Shown in pieces: positions 1 to 6,000 of a stretch of DNA of 62,585 bases. Position numbers: made by a program. Within the stretch, counting starts at the first letter, position 1, and each line of letters opens with the position of its first letter. Source of the DNA: Escherichia coli (GTDB lineage: Bacteria; Pseudomonadota; Gammaproteobacteria; Enterobacterales; Enterobacteriaceae); assembly GCF_002854065.1 (NCBI RefSeq), contig NZ_CP024148.1. One strand, 5' to 3'.

Positions 1-3000
1 TCAGGCAGCTAAACTAGTGGGGTGGCGAAGCTGTCAGGGCCAGTTCAAGCTGACGTAGATCTCTGGCTACCAGTTGCTCTAATCTTTCTTTAGTGCACCA
101 GTACGCTTCGTCCGGCGGCATACGCTTCAGAATAAACCGCGCAATTTCGTTTCGCTGTTCATCATACGGCAGTTTTGCCAGGCGATTAGCACGTTTGCGC
201 TCCGCTGCTTTCTTACGTCGGGACTTGATGGCATCGAGAGAACGCTGCGCATACCAGCGTTTACGAGCCGAGTGAACAGAGATTTCTTCGCCCTCGCGGA
301 TAACGCCTTCTTTAATCAATTGCAGACGGATTTCACTTTCTGCAAGGCGTTTACGTTGCTGTTCCTGAAGTTTCACCAGATCAACTCCCAGCATTTTCCA
401 GCCAGTTTCGGTGATCCAGACGTATTTCGGCAGTCGCTGGCGGGATTCACGGTCCCATATCGTCTTTTCTGACGTTCCCAACGTGCCAAAGGAAACCTGC
501 TCTGCCAGCAGACGGGAAAGGCGCGATACTGTGACTGCGGTTTCAGGAATCACGTCTCCCTTACTGTCTTTTGGGCTTATTTCTTCTGCCAGGCGGGAGA
601 CAGACATGCCGACAGTGTGCAATCCACGATCACAAAAACTCACAAGTACAACCCATATTGCGTCAAGCAGCCGCTGTTTCTCCGGTCGGAATTTATATTT
701 GCGACCGACACTCTGACGTTTCAGTACATAAAATGGATGCAACGACATGTGCATTCTGAGTGTGTTCTGACCAGTAACCGGGTCTTTTTTAACGAGACGA
801 TTGTAAGCGTGGCCCAACTGTCCGCCCAGCGCCTTATAGTTGTCGGGACGGAACCAGGCTGGATTCTCACACTTTGGCTTAGTGGAATGTTCACCCCGGC
901 GACGTTTTGTTGTTCCGCCTTTGTTTTCCTGGGGGACCAGGAATGAGCTTTCAATACCCGCTTCGTAGTCCTGCCAGAAACGGACCTGCTCTTCCGGTGA
1001 TAGTTCAGACCAGTGACGTTTGCTAATCACAGCAAGCTGCACTTAGCTTGCACTGTAAGAGTTGATATTTCCTTCTCATGGAATTAAACTCCACTTCAGG
1101 TAGTAAGCGATTACCTGAAATAAAATGTTATCAGCTCAAGGCTCTGCCTTGAGGTCAACCCCCGCTAATCTGCGCTCCCTGGAAAAGACGAGATTACGGG
1201 GGTTTTCTTTATCTGAAATTTACGTTCTCGAACAAAATTTCAGCACCTCGTTTTCTGCATTTACAAATCGCGGAAAACTTGCCTGCAAATTTAGCAGCAT
1301 GGGCGCAATCGATCAACGATGTTCAAGCCTGGCTCGTTTCCTTTTTGATTCAGCACACATCTGTGACTGCTTCAAAATCGTTTTCAGAACAGCTACTGAA
1401 GCCCCTTCTTTACTGACGTTCCCCATACAAAACCTTACAAAATCAGAAATTCAGAATTTTGTATATTCAAAAAAGTTTTTTTGACTGCATACACCCATTC
1501 ACACGATCGAATAAACCACACAAACAGTATTATCTAGATTTTTAGATCGTACATCATTTAACAAATAGAATATTATTCTATTTTTTAGGTGTTATCCAGA
1601 TCATTAGATCGCTCTCGTGGCATTGACAGGTTTTAAATGTCGCACACACAATACTATCCAGATGATTGTAAAAAGCTCGTTCATCGCGTTTTTTGTGCTC
1701 ATTGCCTGGAAAATGAGCACTCTTTGACGCCCGTTAGAACGCTTGTCATCTCATGCTCTTTAACAACCCCGGACAGCGGTCATTGCCTAAAGCCCTGGCA
1801 TAAGGAGGTTATTATTCGTGCATTTCAAGCACCGCTGGCATCTGTCAGCAACGGGCTACGTAACAGAGTGACGTGCCGCGCCATCTACACAGGTAACGAC
1901 TCTTTATCCGCAAATATCATTCTGCATACTTAAACCCCCTTATTTGGTGAACTCGCGTTGAGTTAATCTCACTCACTCTCTCCCTGAGCAAGTCGTACAG
2001 GCTGCAACGCAGAAGTACACCAGATTTGCCAGTCTCCACTCCAGGTAAGGGGGTTTAGCTATGCATGATGATGAACAATCAGATAAAGAGCCTGTAGTGA
2101 GTGGCTGCAACTTTTCATAATTAGCTTATGACGCTGTATTCCGGGGATGTTTCTATTTCAGACAAACAACCGGGAGAAAATATGGCGCGTAAGTTAAAAA
2201 TTAATCCTGTCATTCCTGAATGTGTGGCAGATTTGAAAGGATATCCACTCTATATCATCGTGGCCTATTGGGGATTAAGAAATAATAAAACGCTCACAAC
2301 AACGGATGTTAGCCGTAATTTCCTTATTACACAGCAACAATCTTATGATGTGCTTACCTACATTTACCAGGAAGCACAGAAGCAGATAACAGCAACTAAA
2401 CGAACACTATTTAACGAGCACAAAAGAAGAATTAGCGCGTTCAGGATTCTTGATATTGACAAAGGCATATTGCGCACACCCAAAAAAGAGATTGCATATG
2501 CCAGCTACGACAATATACCAACTGTCACAATGAAAAGTACCCGTTGTGAGATCCAGGATAGTTTTACAGAACTGCGCCGCTGGATGTGTTCAAGAAAGAC
2601 AGGTGATCGAGTGGAGGTATTTTTGAATGCCTAAGTACCAAATAAACGCAACCATCAAAAAACCAGGTGGTGGCCCCGTGAAATGGACTCATTACAGCGA
2701 CTTCCCTATGACCGCTGAAGAATGCAGAAAAAACTTCTCAAAAGAAAAAGAAGCAGGAAAGTGTTTTTCTGTTGATGTTCATATTTCAGATTTCATTTGC
2801 AAAGAGATACCTCCACAAAATGCAGGAAATACATATGGCTGATTTTGGTTCCACTAAACAAACCGTAACATTTGAAGAATGGCACGAGCTATTAATGGAT
2901 TACGCAGAGTTACGCGGTGGAAATGCCGCCGATGCGGAAGCATGGCGCGGTGATTATGAAGCAGGAAAAACTCCGGTTGAAGCATATTGTGATGAATGGG

Positions 3001-6000
3001 GAGAGGATTAATCATGATTGACGCTATAATTACGCCAATAGTTACATCTATTCCGTTACTCTTATTAATTTTAGTCGCGCTGATATTCGTTAAATCTGCC
3101 GTCAAAATCGTGCCGCAAGGTAATGCCTGGACAGTGGAACGCTTTGGTAAATATACCCATACGCTTTCCCCCGGTCTTCACTTCCTGATCCCGTTTATGG
3201 ACCGCATAGGTCAACGGATCAACATGATGGAAACCGTCCTGGATATTCCTAAACAGGAAGTTATTTCGAAAGACAATGCAAACGTAACTATCGATGCTGT
3301 TTGTTTTGTCCAGGTCATTGATGCAGCGAAGGCAGCTTATGAAGTCGATAATCTTGCATCAGCTATTTCAAATCTTGTTATGACCAATATCCGAACTGTC
3401 GTTGGTGGAATGAATCTCGACGATATGCTTTCTCAACGTGACAGCATCAATTCTAAACTGTTAACGGTTGTCGATTATGCGACTGACCCGTGGGGAATTA
3501 AGGTCACACGTATTGAAATTCGGGATGTTAAACCACCAAAAGAACTGACTGAAGCGATGAACGCGCAAATGAAAGCGGAACGAACTAAGCGTGCCCGGAT
3601 TCTTGAAGCGGAAGGTATCCGCCAGTCAGAAATTCTGAAGGCAGAAGGGGAAAAACAGTCTCAAATACTGAAAGCGGAAGGGGAACGGCAATCAGCATTT
3701 CTTCAGTCTGAAGCACGCGAACGTCAGGCAGAAGCGGAAGCTCGCGCAACAAAACTGGTGTCGGATGCAATCGCTGAAGGTGATGTTCAGTCTGTTAATT
3801 ACTTTATTGCGCAGAAATACACTGAAGCACTCCAGGCAATTGGCACAGCATCAAACAGTAAACTGGTTATGATGCCGCTTGATTCAAGTAGCCTGGTGAG
3901 TTCGGTTGCAGGTATCAGTGAACTGCTAAAAAACGTATCACAGGATACTCCCAAAGTTGATATGAAACAGGCTCAACAATATTTGTCTTAAAAAAGATAG
4001 CGGACGGTGACAATATTGTTTTAATCACCGTCCTTATATTCATATTCACGAATGAGCAAATCATTAAAATGAAAACTTATGGGTTCATCCTTCTTATTTT
4101 ACATATAATCCCTATGGGGGCATGGAGCTTTCTTCTTTTTATTACAAAAGATGAGAACAAAGGAGAAAAAATACTAAACCACATCGCATCAATATTTCCA
4201 TTATGGCTGAACTTCGGAGGGGTGATGATAGCGATGGCTCTGCTGCCCCTGTTAATATGGAGTTTTAATGGCATATTCTTCGGCTTCTTTCTGCTAATTT
4301 ATGCATTTGGCGTTTATAACTACCTTCATCTTCTTTATTCAATTTCTCCCTTTTATCATGGAGATTAGCCATGTTATGGTTTACACTGTTTCTTCTGTGT
4401 ATTGCACTTGAAATTATAACCGGAACAGGATGGTTACTCTTAATCAGTCTTGGTGCATTATCAAGCGCCATTGTGGGCTTTTTTCTTCCGATATCACAAG
4501 AAGCCAATATATGCTTCTTTGCGTCAATCAGCATACTGGCGTCGATAATTAAGTTCTTCTATGACAAAAAACATAAGAAATTAGATACTCTCCTGGTGAA
4601 CACAGGGCATTCACGTTTTAAAGGAAAAGAATTTACGCTCAGTGACGATATTGTTAACGGCAAGGGGCAATTACTCATTGGTGATACATTCTGGCCTGTT
4701 GAGACGTTACACGATGAAAACTACCCTGCGGGAACAAGAGTTATTGTTACAGACATGCAAGGAATAACTCTTAAAGTAATGACCATCGAAGACAAGAGTA
4801 AAAGCAAGGAATAAAACATGCCTCTTTCGTTGTTAATTCCGCTTACGGGAACAGCGATGAATGCACTATGTATTTTTATTATCAGACTTCTGGATAAAGA
4901 TTTTATTGAAGTCTACAAAAAAACGCTAATAAATATTACTGCATTACATATTTTATTGATGGTGTTAAGTGTCACAGGAATAGTATGAGGACAATTCTAT
5001 GCGAAACGCAAATGAAGGAATTTCTCTTGCAGCTATTGTAGCTAAAGAAACAACAACAGGTAAATGGAATGGTACTGGTGGGGGTATTGGTTTAGGTACT
5101 GGTGGTATTGGCTTATTCATCGGAGGTGTTTCTGGTTCTAAACAAGAGCAGACACAAAGGGCAAAAAACTTTGAATCGCCTAAAGAGGAAGAATACAGTC
5201 TATTAAATGTATACGGTTCTATAATAAAATTTCTCGTTTTTGGCGGGCTATTTGGTTTATCTGCCCGTTTATTTACATTTTTATCAGACACTGGTTCTGA
5301 TTTTGCTGAACCAGTAACAACCACCACAGCCACAGGAAAGATTCAATCTATTCTGGGTGGCATGGCAGAAATGGTAAGCATTTTAGGCAGCGTTGTCCCT
5401 TTTTTAGTAATTATCATAGCAATGATCTGGTTTCTGTTTTTCAGCAGCAAACGAGAAAAAGAAGAGTTAACACGAGTTGAACGTGAAGCTGCTAAAACAA
5501 AACTCCGTATAGATGTCTATCACCGTTTACGTTACGTTGAAAGCGATCATGTCGTTTTTGACCCGATTACAGGCCGGGAGGTTCCGGCAGAACGGGCGTG
5601 TATTAATAAACTTATTGAGGCACTTGCTGATGAAAGCAACAACGTCTCATGAAGAAGGTGACAGCCCCCTGAAGGATACGATGAAATGTACAGAAAAAAA
5701 CATCACCTAATAAAAATATTTTTATTAAAAATGGCGTGCAATGTTTTTTCTTTCCTGCTGGGTGCTTTCATACTTTCAGCACCGTTTGTCTTATATACAT
5801 TAACCGGTTCAGTTCTGAATGCCGTTATTCATTTCACCTTTTCTTTGCCTTTAGCCACCATATTACTGGTTTATGCTTATTCAGGCTTTGAAGAAAGCAT
5901 TTATTTATTCATGGCATACAAATATGACTCAAGCAAAAGCTAATCTGAGAAAACTTCGCCGTGCACGTTATGTCCCCCCTCGAACAGTAAAGAAAAGCAT

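Follow-up and report, generated by a model that had tools for sequence, protein, structure and literature searches.

Why should a conjugative plasmid carry, next to its replication gene and ahead of its transfer genes, a membrane module of the SPFH (stomatin-like)/NfeD type? The question is raised by a cluster of small genes in a stretch of 62,585 nucleotides (nt) from Escherichia coli (contig NZ_CP024148.1 of assembly GCF_002854065.1), hereafter the window, which always denotes the whole of that stretch. The original prediction, made from the sequence alone, described there an SPFH/NfeD operon with small partner genes that might act in membrane stress, exclusion or defence, and our analysis bears out its core, a true SPFH/NfeD membrane module whose small, co-oriented partner genes adjoin the replicon of a conjugative IncI2 plasmid. 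The module is the yheC-yheB-(orf58)-ydhA-(orf99)-yhcA-(orf56) block of the IncI2 plasmid backbone, at positions 2182-4988 of the window; it is already annotated in public records and has never been studied in its own right. By its sequence relationships it is a plasmid paralogue of the known QmcA-YbbJ system, and its small partners are likewise members of recognised families. The explanation that best accommodates the evidence as a whole, namely a paralogous cage with an accessory role in conjugation, stands in our estimate at about an even chance.

The central gene, ydhA (3014-3991, + strand; 325 amino acids, aa), encodes a QmcA-type, stomatin-like protein that matches Pfam Band_7 (PF01145, independent E-value 3e-39) over model positions 1-174 of 176 and shares 78% of its residues (228/293; E 2e-146; query 14-308 on QmcA 6-298) with E. 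coli QmcA (PDB 8z5g_A). Behind an N-terminal transmembrane (TM) helix, the single hydrophobic TM segment at residues 8-26, come the SPFH domain, a coiled coil rich in E and A, and a tail at the C terminus; in the ILEAEG/ILKAEGE repeat region 52 of 60 aligned residues are the same as in QmcA. The product of yhcA (4371-4814, + strand; 147 aa) is a short NfeD protein of the YbbJ type, with three TM-like segments in residues 1-63 and a C-terminal OB-fold domain; its NfeD domain (PF01957, independent E-value 1.4e-07) is its sole Pfam match, and it is 32% identical to YbbJ (PDB 8z5g_B; 43/135, E 1.5e-15 over residues 2-139). With high confidence, the pair ydhA-yhcA is a plasmid paralogue of chromosomal qmcA-ybbJ, with which it shares the order of SPFH then NfeD (qmcA lies upstream of ybbJ in E. 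coli), the layout of the SPFH protein, and an NfeD protein reduced to TM helices and an OB-fold. The two pairs differ in that the plasmid NfeD is far more diverged (32%) than the plasmid SPFH protein (78%), that the latter bears a 17-residue C-terminal extension, that a hairpin and a variable small-membrane-protein gene split the plasmid pair, and that the plasmid pair is preceded by a regulator and a DUF1187 gene and followed by type IV secretion system (T4SS) genes. The solved QmcA-YbbJ complex (PDB 8z5g; Tan et al., Structure 2024, cited in PMC12478178) forms a 26-mer cage of the SPFH type on the membrane. In E. coli, QmcA is oriented towards the cytoplasm and is seen as punctate foci. From its 78% identity to this 26-mer-forming protein we infer that YdhA may likewise form a closed multimeric cage.

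Other characterised systems resemble the plasmid pair less closely. In Pyrococcus horikoshii the stomatin-type gene PH1511 also stands in an operon with an NfeD partner, PH1510, whose C-terminal OB-fold domain has been proposed as a scaffold for stomatin assembly; the literature describes this archaeal PH1510 as an NfeD of the long form that carries a protease domain, whereas YhcA, at 147 aa, matches only its C-terminal NfeD part. HflK/HflC-FtsH shares the SPFH superfamily, the cage principle and a link to membrane-protein quality control, but HflKC faces the periplasm, has no NfeD partner, and is only weakly similar to YdhA (E about 1e-11).

Where the plasmid pair came from is harder to say. 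The chromosomal QmcA proteins of many Enterobacterales share 71-80% identity with the plasmid SPFH protein, and those of IncI2 plasmids, of the Rep3-type plasmids described below and of E. coli are mutually about 78% identical, so that no donor lineage can be named, the candidates being about equally distant. A word-indexed search of 5.8 billion proteins for relatives of YhcA returned matches at 60% identity or above alone, those with names being E. coli and Salmonella NfeD, and nothing closer outside IncI2-type sequences. As for the start of ydhA, ATG 3014, preceded by the strong ribosome-binding site GGAGAGGA and lying 2 nt after the stop of orf58, is the best candidate and looks like the true start; one at 2996 was considered and set aside in its favour. 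The RefSeq coding sequence (WP_072089442.1, 317 aa) begins at window position 3038, which here is an ATA codon.

The plasmid setting of the module leaves little doubt. Positions 2100-5000 are 100% identical to the Salmonella plasmid pSC2014107-mcr-62k, typed as IncI2, MOBP and MPF_T, and the module adjoins an IncFII-like repA (14-1042, - strand); on these two grounds it belongs to the backbone of an mcr-1-type IncI2 plasmid. By megablast the block occurs in 518 PLSDB records, 501 of them with at least 80% coverage, against 547 and 526, respectively, for IncI2 repA, and hence about 95% of the IncI2 plasmids in PLSDB carry it. It is annotated in RefSeq and listed as 'core' in a study of the IncI2 plasmid TP114 (PMC7508951). 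Its conservation is thus that of a backbone module, an outcome which the original prediction had named as counting against its own reading; nor are SPFH genes on plasmids as rare as had been supposed, for 1,052 PLSDB records, many of them rhizobial replicons, match the YdhA protein. Literature searches combining IncI2 with SPFH, NfeD, stomatin, HflK/C, QmcA or band 7, and TP114 with ydhA, yheB, yheC or yhcA, returned no paper treating the module.

Selection has acted on these genes. We compared six other IncI2 plasmids (L002-L007, among them pWEC-1 as L002 and STH21 as L005) and a deeply divergent IncI2-like plasmid, CP101950 (L010), from which synonymous sites are saturated (proportion of synonymous differences, pS, 0.7-0.8). 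The latter retains yheC, yheB, the SPFH gene (with a frameshift near codon 236) and the NfeD gene, and keeps the gene order yheC-yheB-SPFH-[slot]-NfeD-yhbB-yhaB-yhaA-virB6. Against it, the proportion of nonsynonymous differences (pN) is 0.07-0.11 for the SPFH protein, 0.12 for VirB6, 0.17 for the DUF1187 protein, 0.23 for NfeD (63% identical) and 0.34 for YheC. Such low values across saturated divergence indicate that the core genes are real and constrained, and that the SPFH protein is the most constrained of the region. Within IncI2, the ratio of nonsynonymous to synonymous divergence (dN/dS) is 0-0.15 for ydhA and 0-0.11 for yheC; the NfeD gene and orf56 have higher values than yheC and the SPFH gene, on few substitutions.

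A second plasmid backbone places the same pair beside a related transfer system. Contigs of 27-54 kb from Hafnia paralvei, an assembly labelled Yersinia pestis and a sequencing run that bears no label encode SPFH proteins 78-80% identical to YdhA, and Salmonella is also among the sources of this backbone; complete annotated plasmids of this kind were not found in PLSDB, and their content was read by walking contigs, including LXET01000070 (Hafnia paralvei) and L017 (Logan ERR162702). The order there is a Rep3-type initiator, three small open reading frames (ORFs), SPFH, NfeD, three small ORFs and a complete virB1-virB11/virD4 set, whose products are related to those of IncI2 (VirB4 53%, VirB2 60% and VirB6 37% identical). 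In both backbones a QmcA-like SPFH gene and a short NfeD gene have the replication gene on one side and a related VirB T4SS on the other, but the Rep3-type plasmids have another replication initiator and lack the CaiF/GrlA gene, DUF1187, orf58, orf99 and orf56; their NfeD is 55% identical to YbbJ and 29% to that of IncI2. A pair that recurs directly upstream of VirB genes in two backbones whose initiators are unrelated appears tied to the T4SS lineage rather than to the replicon or to the thin pilus. The Rep3-type plasmid L017 also carries a Thoeris pair (ThsA_Macro and ThsB_TIR, at 14421-15874), MazEF, Hha and topoisomerase III.

Functional data come from TP114, which carries the block with an SPFH protein 99.7% identical to that of the window and which has been subjected to high-density transposon mutagenesis (Neil et al. 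2020, PMC7508951; scores in Supplementary Data 1). In that transposon-insertion sequencing (Tn-seq), ydhA (stomatin-like) and yheB (pfam06688) were both scored - for maintenance, - for in vitro conjugation and ++ for in situ conjugation in the mouse gut, in both gut designs (PMC7508951). The remaining members of the block were equally - for maintenance and in vitro conjugation, with yheC, TP114-088 (orf99) and yhcA scored + in one gut design, and TP114-090 (orf56) and yhbB scored + in the other (PMC7508951). The genes that follow them behave otherwise, yhaB, virB6 and virB5 being ++ and yhaA + for in vitro conjugation (PMC7508951). Polarity of the insertions on yhaB, yhaA, virB6 and virB5 is an unlikely cause of the gut phenotype because mating on agar was unaffected and because insertions nearer to these genes (TP114-088 to -092) gave weaker scores.

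Some of these observations may be explained by assuming that YdhA and YhcA assemble, most likely at the cytoplasmic face of the inner membrane, into an SPFH dome with an NfeD ring that would fence off a patch of membrane. Such a cage, dispensable for replication and for mating on agar, could act as an organising or quality-control compartment for membrane proteins of the VirB-type conjugation apparatus, so that in demanding environments such as the gut the transfer machines that span the envelope would go on functioning, or the cell would go on tolerating them. To the view that the plasmid cage serves the VirB-type transfer apparatus as an accessory that matters in vivo we give a chance approaching, at most reaching, one in two. 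In favour of this role, the block heads a terminator-free string of genes that runs into yhaB, yhaA, virB6 and virB5, the SPFH protein is under a constraint as strong as that on VirB6, and fractionation of Agrobacterium places its homologues of QmcA and NfeD with the VirB system in detergent-resistant membranes. The more specific proposal that ydhA, together with yhcA, the exchangeable orf99 and YheB, forms a dedicated 'in vivo conjugation' module, superfluous on agar yet needed for IncI2 transfer in the gut, that organises or protects the inner-membrane platform of the T4SS or of the thin pilus is put forward tentatively, the odds being clearly against it. In the general model of an accessory cage, YheB (YdaC family) would be a required small soluble partner sharing the phenotype of the SPFH gene, and the exchangeable small membrane proteins encoded between SPFH and NfeD may be clients or modulators of the cage.

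A number of observations weigh against assigning the cage a part in conjugation. Were YhcA a structural partner in the cage, its gene should score as ydhA does, whereas it was only + in the TP114 gut screen (PMC7508951); the gut result itself stands in a supplementary table only, with no clean-deletion validation and no word on these genes in the main text (PMC7508951), and its read-out, transconjugants recovered from faeces or caecum, confounds transfer with survival of the transconjugants. In Agrobacterium, deleting all SPFH genes altered neither the localisation nor the function of the T4SS, and for the E. coli qmcA deletion a phenotype is not reported. Deletion of the CaiF/GrlA gene of the plasmid pHNSHP45 (orf00039) had little effect on growth or fitness (Yang et al. 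2021, PMC8053102). Broken SPFH genes are found in plasmids that are still typed conjugative, namely STH21 (a 73-nt deletion), pWEC-1 (+4/-1 frameshifts) and CP101950 (a frameshift), some of which natural pseudogenes may be sequencing errors, and about 2 of 30 sampled PLSDB records have no annotated SPFH gene.

What, then, do the alternatives offer? The gut-specific pattern of yheB and ydhA is also that of the pil genes, which the authors of the TP114 study attributed to mating-pair stabilisation (PMC7508951). On this reading the SPFH cage and YheB would instead be needed specifically for the assembly or operation of the IncI2 type IV pilus (pilL-pilV), by which mating pairs are stabilised in liquid and in the gut; they fall in one TP114 class with kikA, pilL, pilN-S, pilU and pilV, dispensable on agar and ++ in situ (kikA + in the second design). 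We nonetheless regard this as unlikely, since the Rep3-type plasmids have SPFH-NfeD by a related VirB system and no type IV pilus gene was found across the 36.8-kb contig that spans most of one such plasmid, since the block in IncI2 adjoins virB6/virB5 and not the pil genes, and since the near equality of Escherichia records matching the SPFH protein (426) and Escherichia records with the IncI2 module (414) leaves little room for it on IncI1/I-complex plasmids that bear such a pilus.

The confounding of transfer with survival in the Tn-seq read-out also allows a role apart from DNA transfer, in which the cage would lower the envelope cost borne by the host or raise tolerance to bile, hypoxia or antimicrobial peptides, and mutant transconjugants would simply die; E. 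coli SPFH complexes (HflKC) do contribute to stress tolerance. To this extent the earlier idea of a membrane-stress function remains plausible, and the gut-transfer phenotype of yheB and ydhA has sharpened it. Such a buffer of host fitness is nevertheless improbable as the explanation of the block, in that insertions were tolerated in the donor library and gave no maintenance phenotype, that the CaiF/GrlA deletion was without fitness effect in vitro, and that the conserved place upstream of VirB genes in two backbones would be left unexplained.

Less probable still is that the block is a largely dispensable hitch-hiker, derived from qmcA-ybbJ captured long ago and retained through its linkage to rep and tra, with Tn-seq calls that reflect noise or local polarity. 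The disrupted alleles of STH21, pWEC-1 and CP101950 fit such an origin, no targeted mutant was found in the literature, and yheB is so short (195-216 nt) that its Tn-seq calls are fragile; but a hitch-hiker would not be expected to show purifying selection on SPFH equal to that on VirB6 across saturated synonymous divergence, presence in about 95% of IncI2 plasmids, and scores of ++ in all replicates of two independent gut designs. As to an anti-phage defence or exclusion module, the other function first proposed, we consider it very improbable, PADLOC (PADLOC-DB v2) giving no match at E up to 0.01 among ten proteins from 2182-6226, and entry exclusion being already assigned to a separate EexN-family lipoprotein gene (8138-8362), which none of the seven proteins of the block matched.

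The three small genes upstream of ydhA had been described as unrecognised, a view that did not survive family searches. The first, yheC (2182-2634, + strand; 150 aa), with a GGGAGA ribosome-binding site ahead of an ATG that is conserved in CP101950, encodes a winged-helix regulator of the CaiF/GrlA family (Pfam PF07180, 2.9e-08; residues 9-92 on GrlA, PDB 4kt5_C, E 5.6e-06); with 26.9 bits against an NCBIfam CaiF equivalog cut-off of 140, it falls within the family without being CaiF itself. It shares with CaiF and with GrlA of the locus of enterocyte effacement the N-terminal helix-turn-helix region, and it is paired with a small co-translated gene as in grlR-grlA, although that partner is a DUF1187 gene and not GrlR-like. 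In NZ_CP017721.1, a 280-kb Salmonella MPF_F plasmid, eight separate places match the YheC protein, which suggests an expanded paralogue family of CaiF/GrlA-like regulators.

The second, yheB (2627-2842, + strand; 71 aa), matches DUF1187 over its full length (Pfam PF06688, independent E-value 1e-38; NCBIfam NF007283, 117 bits against a cut-off of 92) and retains the residues Y4, G14, P17, W20, C33, F56 and C58 conserved in a 37-sequence alignment; it is 72% identical in CP101950, with a pN of 0.17 against a pS of 0.72. An AlphaFold2 model gives a beta-beta-alpha-beta fold at a confidence (pLDDT) of 73. The family is narrow, with 53 clusters among 1.84 billion representatives in a full HMMER scan, and a word-based homologue search returned near relatives only. 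Its best-known member is YdaC of the Rac prophage, 43% identical to YheB over 58 residues and of the same length class, whose gene adjoins ralR and overlaps it by 8 nt just as yheB overlaps yheC, the neighbours in Rac being ralR and xis/int in place of a GrlA-like gene and SPFH. A tblastn match that overlapped ralR made the RalR toxin a candidate homologue, which was rejected when the annotation placed the match in the adjacent ydaC.

The third, orf58 (2835-3011, + strand), encodes an acidic protein of 58 aa that belongs to phrog_519 (7e-21), whose other homologues are a small ORF of lambdoid nin regions, one of them 88% identical, and of Salmonella and Klebsiella phages of about 155 kb. An accessory gene, it is present in about 405 plasmid records at 95% identity or above and absent from L004, L005, L006, TP114 and CP101950. 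Plasmids without it retain its last 22 nt, which supply the ribosome-binding site of the SPFH gene, and it is for this reason that we regard orf58 as probably lost by deletion rather than inserted.

The interval between SPFH and NfeD is, on comparison of these plasmids, a recombination hot spot with four states. It may hold allele A of orf99, as in the window (49 records), or allele B, which is 54.5% identical to A at the amino acid level and likewise of exactly 99 codons (381 records); it may be empty, as in L004 and L005 and, by counts, in about 90 module-bearing records without an orf99 match; or it may hold an unrelated ORF of 120 aa, as in CP101950. The slot occupies 4002-4368 in the window, 3013-3312 in L003, 3199-3498 in L007 and 7294-7656 in CP101950, and yhcA accordingly begins 380 nt downstream of SPFH where orf99 lies between the two and 72 nt downstream where it is missing. 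In the window orf99 (4069-4368, + strand; 99 aa) would encode an inner-membrane protein with two or three TM segments and no recognised family. Although never annotated in 12 sampled PLSDB rows, it must be a real gene, given that an intact frame of 99 codons has been kept across alleles whose synonymous divergence (dS) is 0.53 (nonsynonymous divergence, dN, 0.30), as against dS below 0.08 in the genes on either side; its behaviour is that of an exchangeable cassette. At the head of the slot, directly after the SPFH stop, a hairpin at 4002-4033 on the + strand is formed by GGACGGUGA, a 14-nt loop and UCACCGUCC, with 9 base pairs, and the fold of 3985-4075 reaches -20.9 kcal/mol (z -3.8). Its stems are invariant in six IncI2 plasmids, with or without orf99 following, and CP101950 has another hairpin, GGGCAG-loop-CUGCCC as read from its sequence, at the same place; the element is a candidate attenuator or mRNA-stabilising structure. 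After yhcA comes orf56 (TP114-090; 4818-4988, + strand), which has an AAGGA ribosome-binding site and encodes a peptide of 56 aa with two TM segments and no recognised family; annotated as hypothetical in several records, it is intact and 93-100% identical in L002-L007 and absent from CP101950. NCBIfam and PHROGs gave no match for orf99, orf56 or NfeD.

All seven genes are therefore present on the + strand at the sizes first described, but they do not form one string of coupled genes. The first block, yheC/yheB/orf58/ydhA, is linked by two 8-nt overlaps and a 2-nt gap, and the second, orf99/yhcA/orf56/yhbB, by gaps of 2, 3 and 10 nt, with 77 nt that hold the hairpin between them. Nor does the operon end at 4814, as had been proposed: the gene string runs on past 4988, and no consensus terminator is met through yhbB, yhaB, yhaA, virB6, virB5 and eex until a first strong intrinsic terminator at 8378-8394 (+ strand, terminator scan).

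Upstream of yheC, a candidate promoter/operator region spans 1527-1667 (+ strand; promoter scan and repeats). It contains the only good sigma-70-like promoter on the + strand, TTGACA-18-CACAAT at 1623-1652 (10/12 matches), bracketed by repeats TTATCYAGATNNTTAGATCG at 1530-1549 and 1592-1611, 62 bp apart, with a partial third copy at 1655-1667; a near-perfect palindrome with 14-nt arms lies at 1559-1587. The repeat motif, of the type TTATCYAGAT...TAGATCG, occurs twice in the window against 0.1 expected, and the repeats could be operators at which YheC, or some other regulator of the plasmid, binds. The transcript leader of yheC carries a long-stem element at 1916-2072 (+ strand), with 32-nt inverted-repeat arms (1916-1947 with 2041-2072); for RNA 1900-2200 the folding energy is -103.9 kcal/mol (z -5.9), the final hairpin of the leader (2121-2197) covering the ribosome-binding site and ATG of yheC. 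The leader of CP101950 folds likewise (z -5.6), and a core stem of about 20 bp is kept there with four compensatory double changes and no broken pair, so that the leader could be a cis-regulatory RNA. The promoter with its flanking repeats, together with the structured leader, is the probable site of action of YheC. Sites for FNR and CRP upstream of yheC, sought because TP114 transfer is enhanced by hypoxia, were matched only with two mismatches and are unconvincing, and Rfam matched no family in window positions 1-9000, the repA leader included.

That leader has features of its own. Upstream of repA, a promoter-like site on the + strand (1062-1090) is followed by a CAAGGC-TCT-GCCTTG stem-loop (1137-1151) and, at 1159-1210 on the same strand, by a CCCCCG...CGGGGG hairpin plus TTTTCTTT. 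In its layout, 1097-1210 resembles an antisense RNA for copy control that would lie opposite the leader of repA; an ORF of 119 aa (1125-1484), 'hypothetical' in some records, overlaps this element.

Beyond the module, yhbB (4999-5652, + strand), which lay outside the coordinates first given to the operon, encodes a glycine-rich (GTGGGIGLGTGGIGLFIGG) membrane protein of 217 aa with a weak FliL-like match (7e-04). It is 75% identical in CP101950; in L003 only the C-terminal 90 residues match, and a shorter gene (148 aa) is annotated at that position. From the RefSeq annotation of the identical plasmid, and all on the + strand, there follow yhaB (5924-6226), yhaA (6223-6480), virB6/traA (6484-7479), virB5/trbJ (7485-8129) and the eex lipoprotein gene already mentioned. 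The products of yhaB and yhaA, directly upstream of virB6, are two small soluble proteins, 69-72% identical in CP101950, neither of which could be placed in a family.

These findings bear on plasmid biology as well as on the SPFH proteins at large. Colistin resistance through mcr-1 travels mainly on IncI2 plasmids, and the transfer of TP114 in the gut is unusually efficient; the gut-only Tn-seq phenotype of a plasmid paralogue offers, moreover, a tractable route to the function of this class of SPFH cage. Should the Tn-seq signal fail, the block would be an ordinary conserved backbone module. If, on the other hand, the proposed role holds true, it would be the first clear physiological role of a QmcA/YbbJ-type SPFH-NfeD complex in Gram-negative bacteria, and a new class of accessory factors in conjugation would be defined on the principal mcr-1 vector, besides which the cage would offer a possible target for blocking the in vivo spread of resistance.

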